Source: a virus. Taken from it: a DNA stretch of 64,000 nt. The translations under genes were made by a program, and so were the position numbers. Positions within the stretch are counted from its first letter, which is position 1, and each line of letters starts with the position of its first letter. Under the pieces are notes generated by a model that did not search any database, had not been told where the DNA came from, and saw only the letters and a program-made list of their open reading frames with translations. The stretch lies in IMG/VR virus record IMGVR_UViG_3300024999_000041, positions 64,001 to 128,000 of that record. One strand, given 5' to 3'. Below, piece after piece: positions 5,434 through 58,789 of the stretch.

Positions 5434-5444
5434 TATAATATAAA
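5434..5444 (-). promoter_or_regulatory. Putative late promoter motif TTTATATTATA
   Basis: Exact copy of a motif recurring upstream of structural genes; ~30 nt upstream of the GIY-YIG start. Confidence 0.6.
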
Positions 5445-42806: not shown

Positions 42807-44864
42807 TTATCCTAGTAAGTTCTGAGCTAAATTTAAGTCAAATCCAGTTCTTGTGATAACCACTGACAGTGTAATAAATTCTGCTGTTTTAGTTGGTTGC
42901 ACAAATAACCAGACGTTCATTATGTTATTGTCTATATCGGCTGGAGTATTGTTTGTTTCATCACAAACAACTTTATAATCATAGACACCTTTTCTGGATT
43001 TTATGTTATCCATATAAGATTCCATACCTGTTCTTATTAATAATCTTGTGAAGTCGTCATTAAATTCAAACAGATAATCTTCTAAGAAAGCTGCTAAAGC
43101 TGGTTCTATGGTTATTAAAAGTAATCTCACGTTCAATCTATCTAGTGCTGAAGGTCTAGCAGATAATGTTTTTTGACCCCAGATAGCTATCCCTTTTCCC
43201 ACAGAAAATTTAATAGGGTTAATTCCTGAATCATAGAGTAAATCCAATTCCCCTTCAGTAAATCTTCTTTTGGTGTCAAGTACATTAATCATACCTCTTT
43301 TGAAACCTGCTGGAGCGAACCATATTTCGTAATTTGAAGAGGTATCTGATATAGCTGCTGCTGCGTATCCGTCAGGTGCCACGAATATATCTCTATCATT
43401 AAACCTGTCTCTAATTTTAACGTGGGGTGAGTATAGAGCAGAGTATGAAGAATTCAGGTTAAGAGTGGTTTTTCTATAAGTAACTATGTCCGTCATATAG
43501 TTACTTGAATCTTCAGTATAATATGGAGTAGACAATATACCAACACAGTCTTTTCTGCTTTGGCACAAACTATCTATAGCTTGTTGATATGCTACGGTAG
43601 CCCATCCTCCGTCCATTATTACTGTTAAAGGTATCTCTGCTTTGTTATTCAATGTATTAAGAGCACTAATCATATTAGTATCAGTTACTGATAATCCGTC
43701 TAATGCTCCAGTTAATGTCAAGAAGGTAGTTTGTTCTTTTATAGTCTCAGTACTGACAAGAGAAGTATTATCTATTGCCCTAATATAACTAGAACCTAAT
43801 AGAACATCTTCTATGTAGATGTTTTTACCATATCCATCTTTAGCATTTACATCTCTCGAACATGTAAATACCTCTAAAGTTTCTCCAGTAGATTGTTTAT
43901 ACACTTGAATCTGAAACGCATCTGGTTCTTTTACAACGTCTGGACTATTAGCATAAGTAAATAATTTTATCTCAATATCATTAGCCCAAGAACCTTGATT
44001 AGCTCCTGTTATAAGGAATAAGTCATCTGATTGAAATTCATAAGTTTGTGGATTTACTAAACTGTTTCTAAAAATGGTACCGTCTACTACGTTACTAGCT
44101 AATGTTTCGGATACTACAACTTCTGTATCTCCTGCTACTAAAGTAGCACTTACTACTGTATAAACTCCATCATTTCCCGTAGAGCCTTGAACTCCTATTT
44201 TATCTCCAACATGACAAAAAGATGTTAAATCTGTAGCCATTGTGAATTTTTTGTTAGGTTGGTCTACTGCTGTAATAGCTCCTATCTCAACATCAGTTAA
44301 TTGGATGTTGGTATTAATAGTAGATACCTCTTTGTATATGCTACCGTCTGCTGTAGCATCGGGAACAACTTCGGATACTACAACTTCTGTATCTCCTGCT
44401 ACTAAAGTAGCACTTACTACTGTATAAACTCCGTCATTTCCAGTAGAGCCTTGAACATTTATAGAAGTAACTCCTGTAAAGGAAGCTGTTAAATCTCCAG
44501 TTAATGTGAATTTTTTGTTAGGTTGGTCTACTGCTGTGATAGCTCCTATTAGAGTATTAACTAATATAGGAGTTTTTCTCACAACTAAACCACCGTATGT
44601 GGAACCATTATCGGCTCTTACAACCCATAATCTATTAGCTTTTGATAAATAGGCTAAGGCAGAATAAAAAGCCATATTATATCCCACTTCTACTCTTTGA
44701 TTAGGAGTAAAATAGTTTAATAAGTCTGTATCCGAAGTTACAAATATAGGCTTATTAATATCACCTTTTGGTGCTGGGATAGCTATAGCTGCATAAGTTC
44801 CTAAGGAACTTGGAACTCTTGTAGAGATATCAATCTCTTTTACATTTATGCGAGGTGCTGTCAT
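42807..44864 (-). CDS. Tail sheath protein (T4 gp18-like)
   Basis: PRINVKEID, VVR, GSWANDI, WFAPAG..RG, GINPI, IWGQKT, LDRLNVRLL, FEFND, VVCDETNNTP, PTKTAEFI. Confidence 0.95.
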   Translation of the reverse strand: MTAPRINVKEIDISTRVPSSLGTYAAIAIPAPKGDINKPIFVTSDTDLLNYFTPNQRVEVGYNMAFYSALAYLSKANRLWVVRADNGSTYGGLVVRKTPILVNTLIGAITAVDQPNKKFTLTGDLTASFTGVTSINVQGSTGNDGVYTVVSATLVAGDTEVVVSEVVPDATADGSIYKEVSTINTNIQLTDVEIGAITAVDQPNKKFTMATDLTSFCHVGDKIGVQGSTGNDGVYTVVSATLVAGDTEVVVSETLASNVVDGTIFRNSLVNPQTYEFQSDDLFLITGANQGSWANDIEIKLFTYANSPDVVKEPDAFQIQVYKQSTGETLEVFTCSRDVNAKDGYGKNIYIEDVLLGSSYIRAIDNTSLVSTETIKEQTTFLTLTGALDGLSVTDTNMISALNTLNNKAEIPLTVIMDGGWATVAYQQAIDSLCQSRKDCVGILSTPYYTEDSSNYMTDIVTYRKTTLNLNSSYSALYSPHVKIRDRFNDRDIFVAPDGYAAAAISDTSSNYEIWFAPAGFKRGMINVLDTKRRFTEGELDLLYDSGINPIKFSVGKGIAIWGQKTLSARPSALDRLNVRLLLITIEPALAAFLEDYLFEFNDDFTRLLIRTGMESYMDNIKSRKGVYDYKVVCDETNNTPADIDNNIMNVWLFVQPTKTAEFITLSVVITRTGFDLNLAQNLLG
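44080..44549 (-). repeat. Tandem duplicated 88-aa (264-bp) domain within the sheath
   Basis: IGAITAVDQPNKKFT...QGSTGNDGVYTVVSATLVAGDTEVVVSE twice, with long identical DNA stretches. Confidence 0.9.
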
Positions 44865-46524: not shown

Positions 46525-46585
46525 TATAATATAAAACAAAAATGGGACAGACCTCTCGGTTGTCCCTTAGTAATTATAATATAAA
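46525..46585 (-). promoter_or_regulatory. Two TTTATATTATA motifs (46525-46535, 46575-46585) flanking a terminator hairpin (46538-46566)
   Basis: Exact motif copies; GGGACA..ACC/GGT.TGTCCC hairpin with T-run. Confidence 0.6.
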
Positions 46586-47170: not shown

Positions 47171-47404
47171 TTACCATCCATCTTCTTCGTTATCGTAATC
47201 ATCGTAACTGTCTTCTTCTGACTGTTCAAAATGGATACATCCAAAGTTCATACCAACCATGTGGTTTCCTTCTTCTACATACACTCCAGCACCATCTATG
47301 TTTAGTTCATTATGTTCATTGACATCTTCGCTAGTACATTCACCCATCAGTCTGGAAGATTCATTCTCTTTATAAAATTTACACTCGTGGCAATACCCAG
47401 TCAT
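47171..47404 (-). CDS. Small Cys-rich acidic protein
   Basis: CHECKFY..GEC...FGCIHFE. Confidence 0.6.
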   Translation of the reverse strand: MTGYCHECKFYKENESSRLMGECTSEDVNEHNELNIDGAGVYVEEGNHMVGMNFGCIHFEQSEEDSYDDYDNEEDGW

Positions 47405-48549
47405 TATTCTTCCTCGTCTCCAGATAATTCTTTGTGTAGTTGTACATAGTGGTCATAGTTATCTAAATCTGCTTTAGACACTGAGCCAACACCCATACGT
47501 CTTCCTTCTTTTTGAGCTTGCATAGCTTTAACCTTAGCTATAAATTTAGCTTTCTCTATCTGTTCTGGAGTTCCTGCTCCGACAGCACCTCCAGTTCCAC
47601 CCTGAACATCTATCGCATGGAGTTTAGGAATGTTATTTTTTATATTATCCATAAAGCCTTCACTTTTTTCTGGACGGAATTTAACTTTAAGTTTATCCAT
47701 GAGAGCATCAGCTTTATTACCAATCTCTGGGTCTTCCGATTTATGCCAAACTTTAATATTGTTTAAAGCTCTTATTACCTTGGCATACCCTTTTTTATCT
47801 ACTAAGTCAACATAATGTTTAAAAGGAACTTGCCAGAAGTTTTTATCCTCTGGTATCTCTAATAAATCACTATGTTTAACTTTAATCTTGACTTTGGCTT
47901 TTTCGTCGAGTTTTAGAGAATCAATCAATTGATTAATTCGTCCGAAATTTTTACTCTCCATCTTATTTTCCCCATTATCTTTATTATCAATTCTATCCAT
48001 TTTATCTTTAGGAGATTCTTCTTCTCCCCCTTTATCTTCCGTAGATAATTGATTCCATTTTTTATTTACATATTCATCGTCAAAAAAAGGTATTACAAAC
48101 TTCACTCCCTTATAAGAAGAATAATTTTCTTCTGCTTTGTCTCTAAAAACAAAAGTTCTTCTTACTTGAGTACTGTTATAATTTCCATCATCGTCTACTT
48201 CCATATAATGAAATATCATATTGTCATCAACACCATTTCCATATATAAAAGAAAGTTGTCCGAATTCCTTAGCTAACTCTTCTAATTCATCTAAAGATAA
48301 TCCAGTAACTAAATAAGAATTTTCCAAAACTCCTTCAAAATTTCCTTGAAGGGGAAATACCCTCGTATTGGGATGAGTTTTAAATTTCTTTAAAAGAGTA
48401 TAATTTCTTTTATTATTAACAGAGTCGGGTAATCTTTTACCCATACTATTTTCAGCAGTAATAATACCAATACTTAAATTCTTTCCAGACTTTCCTCTTA
48501 GTACTTTTTCCACATCTGAAAAAATAGTTCTTTGCTCTGAGGTTAGCAT
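47404..48549 (-). CDS. SAM lyase (T3 SAMase/DUF3293)-like domain fused to a putative internal head protein
   Basis: GIITAEN...VNNKRN..L...GNFEG..ENSYLV...LAKEFGQ.SFI matches the SAMase motif order with conserved E and Q; second module starts at internal ATG 47961. Confidence 0.6.
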   Translation of the reverse strand: MLTSEQRTIFSDVEKVLRGKSGKNLSIGIITAENSMGKRLPDSVNNKRNYTLLKKFKTHPNTRVFPLQGNFEGVLENSYLVTGLSLDELEELAKEFGQLSFIYGNGVDDNMIFHYMEVDDDGNYNSTQVRRTFVFRDKAEENYSSYKGVKFVIPFFDDEYVNKKWNQLSTEDKGGEEESPKDKMDRIDNKDNGENKMESKNFGRINQLIDSLKLDEKAKVKIKVKHSDLLEIPEDKNFWQVPFKHYVDLVDKKGYAKVIRALNNIKVWHKSEDPEIGNKADALMDKLKVKFRPEKSEGFMDNIKNNIPKLHAIDVQGGTGGAVGAGTPEQIEKAKFIAKVKAMQAQKEGRRMGVGSVSKADLDNYDHYVQLHKELSGDEEE

Positions 48550-48578
48550 TTTTAATCTCCGAATTTAGTTTTCCTAAA

Positions 48579-48589
48579 TATAATATAAA
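48579..48589 (-). promoter_or_regulatory. Putative late promoter TTTATATTATA
   Basis: Exact motif copy ~30 nt upstream of 48549. Confidence 0.6.
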
Positions 48590-49304: not shown

Positions 49305-49949
49305 CTATAAAGATAATCCATTATTCTGTAACATGGCTGCAAACTGAGCTAGGTGCTTACAAAGACCTTGATATTTTCTAACATCTGGATTTCTGGGGGC
49401 ATGAGTTTTTGTTTTCCTGACATAAGGTTTAAATCTTCCTCCAAATTGAATACCAGCAAGCATATTAGACCAAGACCATGTGAAGTAATAATCGCTACAG
49501 GAGCAACGCACCAATACAGATTGTCTTTTCATATCAAACTTCTTTATCCAATAAAACTTATTTTGATACTGTATCCTAAAATGTGTATTGGGGTCATAGG
49601 TAGGATTAACATTAGTATTAACTATAGGTTTTCTTACAGGTATCTGAGGTTTCTCTGAATCTATTATAGTAGGTTCTTGAGTTTCTTCTTCTGCCTGTAC
49701 TGTTTCCGCTACCTCTTCTATTATTTCACAATTCATAAATAATATATTGGATAAGTGAACTGAGTTTTCAGTCAATCCCCAGAAAGAAGCGGATATAAGA
49801 ACCGTCTTAGTTCCTAAAAAAGGAACTATCTGGTTTATTTGTCTCTTAGGAGATTGAGAATAATTTCTTCTCCAAACCGCTGGTTGCCCTTTAGCATTGG
49901 GTATTTGTGTAGCCTTTATCCATATTTGTTCTAGCGTTAATCTAGCCAT
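49305..49949 (-). CDS. SWIM-type zinc finger protein
   Basis: VRCSCSDY...RNP...GLCKHL. Confidence 0.75.
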   Translation of the reverse strand: MARLTLEQIWIKATQIPNAKGQPAVWRRNYSQSPKRQINQIVPFLGTKTVLISASFWGLTENSVHLSNILFMNCEIIEEVAETVQAEEETQEPTIIDSEKPQIPVRKPIVNTNVNPTYDPNTHFRIQYQNKFYWIKKFDMKRQSVLVRCSCSDYYFTWSWSNMLAGIQFGGRFKPYVRKTKTHAPRNPDVRKYQGLCKHLAQFAAMLQNNGLSL

Positions 49950-52940: not shown

Positions 52941-53557
52941 TATTCTATAACCTCATAGGTTACATTGTTATCATTTAGATATTTTATAAAAGCATCATAA
53001 AATTGATTAGCTATTAAAATATTGGGAGAATCTAGTTCTCCATTCTCTATATTCAAATTAAGCTCATCTCTTAAGTCTCTTCTTTCAGACCTAAGCATGC
53101 CCCCTACTCTCATCTCTTGTAGAAATTTATCTCTATATATTATAATCTTTGTTACATAATCTAAAAAATTAGGTATTTCTATACCCTCTATAGCATAAAT
53201 ACCTTTACCTACTACTCTTTCCTCTGCTTCTACACGTTCTGGGTTACTTTTATCTGCATAGTTATAGTAATTAAAAGGTTCTATTTTATACTTATTAGAT
53301 AATTTATCCCCATCCACTATAAAAACTATAGCTGTACCAGATATACTTCCCCTAGGTACTTTGTTAAAATTTTTATCCCTAGTAAAAGATATGTACCCAT
53401 AACCACCATAACCGCTATCTGGTTGTCTCCTACTAGATTTAAGAGAATTCTCTTTAAGAATATGTATAAATTTATCAGCATTAGTAAAATGATAAAGAGT
53501 TCCTACCTGTTTACCTTCTAACATCTCTATCAAATTTTTAATCTTTTTAATGGACAT
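52940..53557 (-). CDS. ADP-ribosyltransferase-fold protein, putative internal head protein
   Basis: LYHFT..IL..N.L, YISFTR, EAEERV; shared N-terminal motif. Confidence 0.6.
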   Translation of the reverse strand: MSIKKIKNLIEMLEGKQVGTLYHFTNADKFIHILKENSLKSSRRQPDSGYGGYGYISFTRDKNFNKVPRGSISGTAIVFIVDGDKLSNKYKIEPFNYYNYADKSNPERVEAEERVVGKGIYAIEGIEIPNFLDYVTKIIIYRDKFLQEMRVGGMLRSERRDLRDELNLNIENGELDSPNILIANQFYDAFIKYLNDNNVTYEVIE

Positions 53558-55858: not shown

Positions 55859-57271
55859 TTATACTAAGTTCTGCACGTCAATCTTAGTAATAAACCTGTT
55901 CACGATGACCTTCATGGCTGACCAAACCAATGCGTACCCTTGGGTTTTTAACACATTGTTTAATACTGGTAAACTTCCGTTTACAACTAAAGGCATATAT
56001 GGACAGTAAACAGCAGGAGCATCGAAGTTGCCTGTACCTTTGTAGATACAATATACAGCACTGTCGTCTATTACGTCTATCGCTCTGATTACTGGAATAT
56101 TTTTGTTGTACATACCATAAAGTGTAGGTCCTGAAGAAGCAAATCCAGTTCTTTCAAATAAGGTTCCTAATTGGTCAAACAAGGCTGCTGCTTTAACACC
56201 ACAGATAATAGCTGTTACTTCACCACGACCTGCGTTTTGAGCAATGTGGGAAGAAGCTTCAGCGATTCTGTTTCTGAAAGCAAGTTTGTGTTCGACTTCG
56301 GAGGTTCCTGCTGGAGCTGCTGAATCCCATACGATAGGAGTACCGAAAGAAGCATTAGCTATTCTGCTAATAAGAGTGTTTCCCAATTCAGCGTTTATTT
56401 CCATTGTAAGGTCGTTAATCATTTCTGTTTCAGCATCCTTACCAAAGGTTTGTTTTAATTCAAACGCTTTCAAGCTACCCATTTCACTTCTTAATGCGAA
56501 CACTTCGGCTCTAACATCAGCGGAATCGAAACTTGATTGAATCGTAGGAAGGTTTCCGTTTTCTTCGTATTCTGTACCAAACTCAGCTCTAGCAACTTCT
56601 ACACCAGTAATAGGGGTGATGAAGTCGATAGTTACTAAACCTGTAGCATAGTTAATAGTACCTGTACCTAATGCTCCACCAACTGGAACAATGTTTCCAT
56701 TACCATCATCTATTAAGGTTTGGGTTGTCGTGGAAAGACTGATTGTTAATTGTCTTTCTCTAACAGGTGCTGGAGTTAAGTTGAAAGTATAACTTTGTTG
56801 AGCAGCTATCAATGTTCCTAAGTTCTGATAAACTTTCTCACCAGCGAAACCTACTGCTTGTACTTGAGGTTTAGCAATAGCATTTCTAAGGATGTCATTT
56901 TCACTAACATTTCCTCTAGTTGTTCTAGCTTTGATTTGTTTGAAATAAACAATACCTTGTTGACCTTTAATAGGTTGAACTGAAGCTAGTAAAGGAAGAA
57001 TGGAAGCTGCGTAGTTAGCTGTGATAACATCATAAGCGTATTTAGGTAATTGACCTAAATCTTTTAATGTACCAAATGTTTCACTTACCATTTTTTTAGT
57101 GTTTTCAAACTGTCTAAATTGTTTTCCTAAGATTACATAATCCATAGGGGAAATAGCTCTTACTCTTGCAAGTGGTGATTCTTCCAAGGATTCCATGTAA
57201 GGCTTGTAGGTAGGGTTCTTTAAGAAGTATTCCGCACCTCTTAATACTTTTTCATTCTGAGTCATCTTCAT
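55859..57271 (-). CDS. Major capsid protein (T4 gp23-like)
   Basis: SVQPI.G..G.VYF, V.A....LR, EIN.E, YKG...FDAP.VYCPYMPL. Confidence 0.92.
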   Translation of the reverse strand: MKMTQNEKVLRGAEYFLKNPTYKPYMESLEESPLARVRAISPMDYVILGKQFRQFENTKKMVSETFGTLKDLGQLPKYAYDVITANYAASILPLLASVQPIKGQQGIVYFKQIKARTTRGNVSENDILRNAIAKPQVQAVGFAGEKVYQNLGTLIAAQQSYTFNLTPAPVRERQLTISLSTTTQTLIDDGNGNIVPVGGALGTGTINYATGLVTIDFITPITGVEVARAEFGTEYEENGNLPTIQSSFDSADVRAEVFALRSEMGSLKAFELKQTFGKDAETEMINDLTMEINAELGNTLISRIANASFGTPIVWDSAAPAGTSEVEHKLAFRNRIAEASSHIAQNAGRGEVTAIICGVKAAALFDQLGTLFERTGFASSGPTLYGMYNKNIPVIRAIDVIDDSAVYCIYKGTGNFDAPAVYCPYMPLVVNGSLPVLNNVLKTQGYALVWSAMKVIVNRFITKIDVQNLV

Positions 57272-57352: not shown

Positions 57353-58789
57353 CTATTTTGATTTTTCATTTTTGTACTGTCTGAACAAATTATAGACAGG
57401 TGGTTTATCCTCTTTCAAAGACTGTTGCTGTTTTTTATCAACAACTTTTTTCTCTTCCATTCTAACTTCTTCTTTAACAATTTTTTTGTTTTTAAGGTTA
57501 AGTGATTGAAGAATACCAACTGTTTGAACTTCTCCCAATGTTTCTAACATGCTTCTTACGTTTTCTATAGGAGCATTGTATTCTCTCGAAATAGAAAGAA
57601 CTAAATTTTCATTTTGTTTTTCTTTTTCTTCATTTACTAAATGTTCCGCTCTTGAAATTATTTCTTTAACTTCACTAAGAGGAATACCTAAATTAACAGT
57701 TTCTTCAAGAACATATTCAATAACAGGTATAGCTTCTACGATAGAATCTAACTCACCAAGTTCTGACCACTTTTCATTGTCTTCTGTTAATTTTTTAACT
57801 TTTCTTTCAATCTGTTCAGGTCTTCCTAATTTAGCATAAGCTTCGAGTAATGAACCAGACTTCTCTAAATCTTCTTTAAGAGTGGTAATATCTTCTATTT
57901 CACACTCTTTCAAATGATTCTCAATAACTGCTAATTTTTCTGAAATCTGATTTTTTTCTGTTTCTACTTCTTCTGCTTTAGCTAATTTTTCTGTAAGACT
58001 AGCTATCTCAGCATTTTTCTTAATAACTTCTTCATCTAATTGTTTTGCTTTAGCTTCAGAAATAGCTTTCTCTTCCCTAAGTTTCATAACTTCTTCGTTA
58101 AGAGAATTCTTTTCTGTTCTTAAGTCTTCATAAATTTTTTGGGTAAATTCCATCTCTAGTCTCCTCATGTCTTCTTTTATCTTTTTGATATTTTCTTTAA
58201 TCAAAGGATTAGTTTCTGTAAAACCTGGATTCAATACGAAGTCAAAAGTTTCCAAATAATAACTATTTTCGTCAACTATTGGCATACCTTCGTGAGTCTC
58301 GTTGGATTTATAGTCCCCAGATGCTCTGGAAGATACTTTTATTCTCGAACCTGCTTTCATAACAACATAAAGGTTTCTTCCAGCAGGAGTACCTAGAATA
58401 TATGCCTCGCCCATACCCATCTTAGTTTCTTCGTCAATCCATAATTTAGTAACAATATGAGAAACTTTGCCATCCGTTATATCTGATTCAGTTATACCTC
58501 TATCTTCATGACCTATACAACCAAACATAACTTTATCGTCCAGTCTTCTTCTTAAATCTGGATGACCTATAATAGTTTCCCAAAATACTTTAGGATAATA
58601 TCTTTCATTTCTTGAAACACCGTCTGGAACAAAGAAAACACCTTGAACAACTGCCAAGATATTTCTACCGTCTGCAACAGATTTATTAGAAGATTCATTT
58701 AAATAATCTTCTTTTAATTCCCATTTATTATCGGGTATGTCCCAAAGCTCATATTGAAAATTTTTACTCATTACTTTCATACTCTCCAA
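57353..58789 (-). CDS. Prohead protease (gp21-like) fused to a coiled-coil scaffold (gp22-like)
   Basis: SRNERYYP, GH, VSHIV, LGTPAGR, VSSRASG, TFDFVLNPG, then ~270 aa Glu-rich coil. Confidence 0.88.
   Translation of the reverse strand: MESMKVMSKNFQYELWDIPDNKWELKEDYLNESSNKSVADGRNILAVVQGVFFVPDGVSRNERYYPKVFWETIIGHPDLRRRLDDKVMFGCIGHEDRGITESDITDGKVSHIVTKLWIDEETKMGMGEAYILGTPAGRNLYVVMKAGSRIKVSSRASGDYKSNETHEGMPIVDENSYYLETFDFVLNPGFTETNPLIKENIKKIKEDMRRLEMEFTQKIYEDLRTEKNSLNEEVMKLREEKAISEAKAKQLDEEVIKKNAEIASLTEKLAKAEEVETEKNQISEKLAVIENHLKECEIEDITTLKEDLEKSGSLLEAYAKLGRPEQIERKVKKLTEDNEKWSELGELDSIVEAIPVIEYVLEETVNLGIPLSEVKEIISRAEHLVNEEKEKQNENLVLSISREYNAPIENVRSMLETLGEVQTVGILQSLNLKNKKIVKEEVRMEEKKVVDKKQQQSLKEDKPPVYNLFRQYKNEKSK

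Follow-up and report, generated by a model that had tools for sequence, protein, structure and literature searches.

The S-adenosylmethionine (SAM) lyase gp0.3 of phage T3 is the first early protein to be synthesised once the phage DNA has been injected, and a textbook anti-restriction protein. Here we describe a gene that joins a SAM lyase domain of the T3 type to a putative head-loading module, found in a 64,000-nucleotide stretch of viral DNA (positions 64,001 to 128,000 of IMG/VR record IMGVR_UViG_3300024999_000041; this whole stretch is called the window, and coordinates are those of the window unless another record is named). From sequence comparison and structure prediction we propose, with a probability of about 0.5 for the whole chain of events, that the encoded protein of 381 amino acids (aa), P0001, is a late, virion-delivered two-module SAM lyase.

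Virion association of a SAM lyase is already known from one published proteomic precedent, cyanophage S-CREM2 (2023), whose gp6 was found in purified virions by mass spectrometry and was suggested by the authors to be encapsidated (PMC10665884). In T4, the 10-residue capsid-targeting sequence (CTS) MKTYQEFIAE directs IPII, IPIII or whatever foreign protein is fused to it into the prohead, after which it is clipped off (PMC8442874, PMC9958956). The SAM-AMP lyases and the candidate AcrIIIB4 (PDB 9GAD) belong to a PII-like superfamily with a catalytic Glu and Gln, and one phage SAM-AMP lyase is, like P0001, fused to a second domain (PMC12255297).

Compared with T3 gp0.3 (PDB 8BB1 and 7OCK; PF23780), to which it is 13-15% identical, P0001 differs in both architecture and setting: gp0.3 is a free-standing early protein of 152 aa, whereas in the window the domain is followed by a linker, tag, basic domain and tail in one polypeptide, and its gene stands under a structural-gene promoter. 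The lyase Svi3-3 (PDB 6ZM9 and 6ZNB; PMC7877911) lacks a C-terminal β extension that is common to the window domain and T3. Like S-CREM2 gp6 (OR473000, L005; 414 aa, PF23780 E-value 2.3e-19 on aa 37-170), P0001 comes from a T4-like myovirus and has an N-terminal SAM-lyase domain, a length of ~400 aa and a long, non-homologous C-terminal extension. However, gp6 belongs to the PF23780 branch and lies among early/auxiliary genes, whereas the window gene lies in the head-neck module, and the leader of gp6 is N-terminal and ends Leu-Glu-Glu, whereas the tag of P0001 is internal; a BLASTP comparison of P0001 with gp6 found no similarity. What is new here is the architecture, in which an enzyme stands upstream of an internal tag apparently borrowed from a fused head-cluster protein, its own leader having been lost. 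The gene and its parts are arranged as follows.

47404..48549, minus strand: whole coding sequence of P0001, 381 aa plus stop, a single open reading frame (ORF) read from the sequence
48049..48528, minus strand: SAM-lyase-fold domain, aa 8-167 (Pfam DUF3293 core, aa 30-98)
48256..48345, minus strand: predicted substrate-binding residues Gly69 (48343-48345), Phe71 (48337-48339), Glu76 (48322-48324) and Gln98 (48256-48258)
47962..48048, minus strand: acidic variable linker and module junction, aa 168-196, pI 4.5, the sole poorly aligned part of our alignment A1
47902..47961, minus strand: Met197 and tag-like helix, aa 197-216, ending Leu-Asp-Glu216, placed by a position-specific scoring matrix (PSSM) and by the start of a stand-alone homologue, P0217
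47671..47901, minus strand: small basic domain, aa 217-293, 9 kDa, pI 9.7, kept in 17/17 two-module relatives and in P0217
47407..47670, minus strand: clade-specific C-terminal tail, aa 294-381, restricted to the window protein, P0002 and P0003

The N-terminal domain is homologous to SAM lyases, a point on which we see very little room for doubt, and within the superfamily it is of the T3 type and falls in the DUF3293 branch. Pfam DUF3293 (PF11697) matched aa 30-98 with an E-value of 3.4e-9 (37.6 bits, past the curated cut-off of 25); the Pfam model, which carries no function, covers 73 residues of a ~150-residue domain. An exhaustive phmmer search with aa 1-175 returned 334 representatives whose homology spans ~aa 8-167, about twice the length of that model. 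All 65 of the family members examined matched DUF3293, 17 of them also matched PF23780 (S-AdoMet_lyase) at an E-value of 0.001 or better, and in several multidomain members a single stretch both matches DUF3293 and exceeds the PF23780 cut-off. A model of the domain built with 65 diverse relatives reached a mean predicted local distance difference test (pLDDT) score of 97, and its six best PDB matches in Foldseek were all SAM lyases (T3 8bb1_E, E-value 7.9e-5, template modelling (TM) score 0.56/0.65; also T3 7ock and Svi3-3 6zm9 and 6znb), a structural match that a first-pass annotation of this DNA, made from the letters alone, had named beforehand as the check on its assignment. For the PII-like β-α-β-β-α-β core, the solved SAM lyases are a closer match than are other PII/ferredoxin folds. 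Profile-profile alignment of the 65-member family with the T3-family alignment (hhalign, E-value 0.012 over 83 columns) reproduced the motif order on which that annotation had relied (ITAEN~VSAFR, VNNKRN~VNMSRH, GNF..ENS~GCY..EEK, EFGQ~EWEQ), and alignment of the family with S-CREM2 gp6 (E-value 5e-5) gave these motif pairs too and placed the invariant residues together as the T3-family alignment does. Against the single T3 sequence hhalign gave a weak and partly misregistered alignment (E-value 0.2), which is interpretable only with the T3-family profile. Sequence-profile searches of the PDB with alignments A1 and A2 found no match even at an E-value of 10, and within the literature library searched no paper was found to mention DUF3293. 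Fold, conserved ligand-binding residues and members that match both Pfam families thus bear out the assignment of the domain as SAM-lyase-like.

Conservation within the family is concentrated at the predicted ligand-binding residues, with Gly69 and Glu76 kept in 65/65 members and Gln98 in 64/65; Asn45 is also invariant. By hhalign, Asn45, Gly69, Phe71, Glu76 and Gln98 pair with T3 Asn27, Gly55, Tyr57, Glu68 and Gln94, and Gly69, Glu76 and Gln98 also align with the same motifs of S-CREM2 gp6, a correspondence that comes from sequence profiles and the order of secondary structures rather than from residue-level superposition. The T3 residues Gly55, Tyr57, Glu68 and Gln94 are equivalent to Svi3-3 Gly56, Tyr58, Glu69 and Gln104, and in the structure-guided alignment of Guo et al. 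only Gly56, Glu69 and Gln104 are strictly conserved in active SAM lyases; all three touch the ligand, the conserved Gly, Glu and Gln binding the ribose and amino group of SAM (PMC7877911). A T3 E68Q/Q94A mutant is catalytically dead (bioRxiv 10.1101/2023.02.27.530186). The N-terminal domain probably cleaves SAM.

Three long proteins returned by the phmmer search (P0074, P0112 and P0144, 679-952 aa) carry two copies of a lyase-like domain, one DUF3293 and one PF23780, and could be pseudo-oligomers of an enzyme with inter-subunit active sites. The T3 reference record NC_003298 (L001) annotates the gene 0.3 SAM lyase (901-1359) wrongly as a 'SAM-dependent methyltransferase' and lists an in-frame internal initiation at 982 for the same gene.

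The two modules are separable and truly fused, as comparison with relatives supports and as the first-pass annotation had suggested in describing a gene fusion. Seventeen two-module relatives from ENA, JGI and Logan assemblies contain the N-terminal domain, an acidic variable linker and the segment corresponding to aa 197-293, the closest being a protein of 381 aa that is 99% identical to P0001. The modules are separable because the C-terminal part stands alone in contig L002 and the N-terminal domain stands alone in hundreds of proteins of 130-260 aa, as well as in other fusions. A search for short stand-alone C-part proteins returned one, P0217 (99 aa), which begins at the position of Met197, that is, at the tag start; its gene is preceded by a stop codon, the common promoter motif and its own ribosome-binding site (RBS) and is followed by homologues of the next two genes of the window, so it is a genuine gene of its own and not a fragment cut off by the contig end. 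Extra domains are inserted at the linker in P0008, P0016 and P0017, and P0014 and P0017 end in another, differing tail. The retained Met and the linker insertions look like scars of gene fusion. In P0016 the linker insert is ~60 aa long (alignment A1 columns ~200-305) and is flanked by a repeated GNRPMES, which is the tag start; the repeat suggests module exchange by recombination at the tag sequence.

Contigs of three independent studies span the joint (47855-48169 and wider) without an indel and with at most one difference, which is synonymous, and 24 of the 27 within-ORF differences among the listed population variants fall in third codon positions. The stop before 47961 that the first-pass annotation had raised as a way in which the fusion might fail is thus absent from these contigs, and an assembly error is excluded.

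The helix that opens the C-terminal part resembles the N-terminal leaders of neighbouring head genes. A PSSM was trained on the seven N-terminal leaders of ORFs in the neighbouring head cluster, with the lyase gene left out, and in a scan of 20,015 positions of the window proteins FGRINQLI (aa 202) was the top non-training match, in keeping with the targeting-like tag that the first-pass annotation had placed here. A looser leader pattern is ~tenfold enriched at N-termini in the 46.6-59.5 kb cluster. All seven leaders and the internal tag end in [ILVM]-x-Glu, at least one such site is kept in every relative, and the tag residues Ile205, Leu212 and Glu216 are conserved among relatives. The sequence [LIV]-x-Glu is the type of site cut by the T4 gp21 protease family, a member of which is encoded nearby.

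57356..58789, minus strand: T4 gp21-family prohead protease (Peptidase_S77 E-value 1.2e-7, above cut-off; phrog_207 E-value 3e-23)

Features of the locus that recall T4 IPII, IPIII and Alt are a short leader-like segment ending [LIV]-x-Glu, a gp21-family protease nearby, a small basic putative cargo and (putatively) late expression. Unlike the T4 CTS, the window tag has the core F-(K/G)-R-I-x-x-L-(V/I) and stands at residues 197-216, behind a 20-kDa enzyme domain. A 205-aa protein of the window (52943-53557, minus strand), with the leader MSIKKIKNLIEMLE, has a weak, sub-threshold match to Tox-ART-HYD1 (E-value 0.0016, aa 21-71) and recalls the packaged T4 ADP-ribosyltransferase Alt.

The gene is preceded by a motif that it shares with the structural genes of the window.

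48574..48589, minus strand: structural-gene (late-type) promoter motif TTTATATTATATTTAG, 40 nt upstream of the start codon
48557..48560, minus strand: GGAG Shine-Dalgarno (SD) sequence for the full-length product, CGGAGATTAAAAATG, read directly

The core of the motif, TTTATATTATA, lies at 48579-48589 on the gene strand, and its extended consensus is TTTATATTATAnnTAG. Twelve exact copies of the core occur in the window, all on the gene strand, all intergenic and all 33-83 nt before a start; with one mismatch allowed there are 37 copies in the window against 16.8 expected. Eleven of the 12 exact copies fall in the structural half, including those before the capsid (57271), portal-like (61953), neck and tail genes, and the motif is also conserved ahead of the L003 and L004 orthologues and of the L002 gene that encodes the C-part alone. 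Of the late-type promoter claimed in the first-pass annotation, the part that stands is a motif common to structural genes; the word 'late' is read from the genes served. Two further features of the motif were seen elsewhere in the window. Upstream of a 153-aa gene (46525-46585, minus strand), two exact copies lie 50 nt apart with a GC-rich hairpin (GGGACA...TGTCCC) and a T-run between them, such that a terminator appears to sit between tandem promoters. The sole exact copy outside the structural half (5434-5444, minus strand) precedes a 351-aa protein whose N-terminus is, by eye, like that of a GIY-YIG homing endonuclease.

Leaders of the same kind occur in the wider DUF3293 family. In 36 of the 59 members with enough upstream sequence, [LIVMF]-x-E stands exactly three residues before the conserved aromatic residue that opens the domain, and the leader ahead of this boundary is 4-31 residues long. 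No member of the fused clade has such a leader, the apparent match in P0023 being only its initiator Met. On contig L006, the DUF3293 protein P0097 starts with MKTYKEFINE, the adjacent PF23780 protein (279 aa, E-value 1.4e-12) starts with MKTYKNFINE and two further neighbours share the leader, in which 8 of 10 residues are as in the T4 CTS. In S-CREM2, the gp6 leader MKDFDSFLEE recurs on the virion protein gp14 (a kinase) and on gp13. The simplest reading of these sequences is that DUF3293-family lyases are commonly head-loaded via an N-terminal leader and that in the fused clade the enzyme, having lost its leader, depends on that of its fused partner.

Several observations accompany this comparison. 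The 6-kb contig L006 (161-5742) carries a run of genes all starting MKTY(K/R)... and resembles an internal-protein locus of the T4 kind in which two lyase paralogues are present. The leaders of gp6, gp13 and gp14 have the T4 CTS-like form MK(D/R)(F/L)xxFL(E/T)E, which is absent from the discussion in PMC10665884. The contexts of P0024 and P0040 contained no recognisable head genes. In Flavobacterium Elemovirus, 68 cultured records have a DUF3293-like stretch 38% identical to P0024 aa 35-120, located inside a ~3,700-aa protein that the depositors call 'structural' (elemoF NC_055853, L009, 2044-12246); PMC7077304 does not cover the Elemovirus phages, and the polyvalent-protein survey PMC5512222 does not mention SAMase.

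In the mechanism that we propose for P0001, the two-module protein would be made late from the structural-gene promoter, and its N-terminal domain would bind SAM via Gly69, Glu76, Gln98 and the aromatic residue 71 and cleave it to methylthioadenosine and homoserine lactone. The 20-residue leader Met197-Glu216 would dock the protein into the assembling prohead core, and a gp21-type protease would cut after Leu-Asp-Glu216. Both products, a 25-kDa lyase fragment and the basic fragment, would remain inside the head until they were injected together with the DNA. In the new host cell the lyase would exhaust SAM ahead of all phage gene expression and so weaken SAM-dependent defences, type I/III restriction and bacteriophage exclusion (BREX) among them. 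Catalysis, packaging, cleavage and injection are steps that we infer. We give even odds to the step in which the full-length protein is packaged via the internal tag and then cut at Glu216, and the packaging idea draws indirect support by analogy from S-CREM2 gp6 and the CTS-led family members. The broader idea, that the internal head-loading tag works, that the leaderless lyase is carried in, cut free and injected, and that DUF3293 as a whole comprises virion-delivered SAM lyases of large tailed phages, is offered more tentatively, as somewhat short of an even chance.

Several findings weigh against this proposal. As to the enzyme, PF23780 matched the window protein below its cut-off (E-value 0.18, 12.2 bits, cut-off 28), and identity to the solved lyases is 13-16%. 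The Tyr/acid pair of the characterised lyases, whose Tyr packs against the γ-carbon or sulfonium, is replaced, with Phe71 at the position of Svi3-3 Tyr58 and Leu99 at that of Svi3-3 Glu105 and T3 Asp95; among the 65 members, 35 have Tyr and 28 have Phe at position 71, while 29 have Glu and 7 have Asp at position 99. These replacements do not exclude activity, because in Svi3-3 Y58F lowers activity only fivefold and E105Q only threefold (PMC7877911), and they form a mild objection in that they may mean a lower activity or a differing substrate. As to the cut, [LIV]-x-E is short and recurs inside the folded N-terminal domain (for example Leu86-Asp87-Glu88), so the motif alone is no predictor of cleavage, and the LNE conserved at the domain boundary of relatives may cap a helix instead of being cut. 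As to the tag, the 381-aa product carries it internally, and only P0217 and any product initiated at Met197 have it at the N-terminus; to our knowledge the T4 CTS has been described only as an N-terminal leader, and we know of no test of an internal one. The C-terminal domain is an orphan, with no match in Pfam, PHROGs, Atlas (TM score 0.38 or less with the C-part) or the window's own proteins, among which it has no paralogue. The source phage is uncultured.

The main rival, which we regard as unlikely, is that the lyase is a late, cytoplasmic enzyme that stays unpackaged and that only the basic protein initiated at Met197 enters the head. The enzyme would then lower SAM late in infection, for example leaving progeny DNA free of host methylation or shutting down SAM-dependent host functions. 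A separate start could be served by one short sequence.

47962..47973, minus strand: SD-like sequence GGGGAAAATAAG ahead of the internal ATG, suggestive only

The in-frame internal ATG (47961-47959, Met197) follows this sequence, and the near-identity that the first-pass annotation had noted between it and the RBS of the start at 49949 was found again (GGGGAAAATAAG vs GGGGAAAATTAA). However, in the window ~10% of internal ATGs (vs 70% of gene starts) have an SD-like word ahead of them, and such words are to be expected in a purine-rich linker; because of this, the internal RBS is only suggestive evidence for separate synthesis of the C-terminal part. A Met within ~8 residues upstream of the tag is kept in 9/15 fused relatives, as internal initiation would favour, but is missing in the other 6/15. 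The independent C-part gene in L002 and the N-terminal position of the known T4 CTS (PMC9958956) also fit an unpackaged lyase, but both parts stand in one frame in 17 relatives, and N-terminal domain relatives usually bear head-loading-type leaders of their own, making a cytoplasmic enzyme less parsimonious than packaging of the whole protein.

A second rival, to which we give a rather low probability, is that the N-terminal domain is a member of the superfamily that is not a SAM lyase, but instead cleaves a related sulfonium such as SAM-AMP, the type III CRISPR signal, or mainly binds a host protein, as T3 SAMase binds MetK. The superfamily contains SAM-AMP-specific enzymes that leave SAM intact and have just the Glu and Gln in common (PMC12255297), a catalytically dead T3 SAMase continues to inhibit BREX by binding MetK (bioRxiv 10.1101/2023.02.27.530186), and Phe71 and Leu99 depart from the Tyr/acid pair; on the other side stand the Gly, Glu and Gln that P0001 shares with active SAM lyases. 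A third possibility, that P0001 serves the head or neck solely as a structural or scaffolding part, with a PII/ferredoxin-like fold reused for assembly, fits the position of the gene between head and neck/tail genes, its structural promoter and a C-terminal domain that has no recognisable function, and seems improbable given the conserved ligand-binding residues. The weakest explanation, that the fusion is an assembly or sequencing artefact joining adjacent genes, has practically no probability and nothing found in its favour; it was rejected because the bridging contigs of the three studies are free of indels, differ across the joint by no more than one synonymous change, and 17 relatives have both parts in a single frame.

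The proposed virion-delivered lyase is encoded in a T4-like myovirus structural region that includes a terminase-like gene, a 574-aa gene in the portal position, the prohead protease, and capsid and sheath genes.

55862-57271: major capsid protein gene
42810-44864: tail sheath gene

The capsid protein shares ~36% identity with its counterparts in T4-like phages of Rhizobium and of cyanobacteria. The lyase gene lies three to four genes upstream of the sheath gene, a placement conserved in relatives, and sequence of the window recurs in groundwater, aquifer and sediment metagenomes of several studies. Searches of cultured phages with the locus (blastn) and with P0001 (tblastn) gave no match, and a PHROGs search with P0001 gave no family. 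An AlphaFold2 model of the whole protein was mediocre (pLDDT 63) and gave no confident structure for the linker, tag and tail. One base of the lyase gene's stop is shared with the gene of a 77-aa Cys-rich protein (CxxC ... GCIHF; 47171-47404, minus strand), and a gene for such a protein also lies 3' of the stand-alone C-part gene in L002 (L002:420-659).

In sum, these results link DUF3293, a Pfam family that carries no function, to the T3 SAM lyase fold and its ligand-binding residues. The leaders found in the family offer a mechanism for the virion-associated SAM hydrolase of cyanophage S-CREM2, and the Elemovirus phages are possibly a tractable system for virion delivery. The locus itself is a natural test of an internal capsid-targeting tag, a question relevant to protein delivery by T4-type heads. 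If the proposal is true, a pre-made, virion-borne SAM lyase would skip the delay of synthesis that follows DNA entry.

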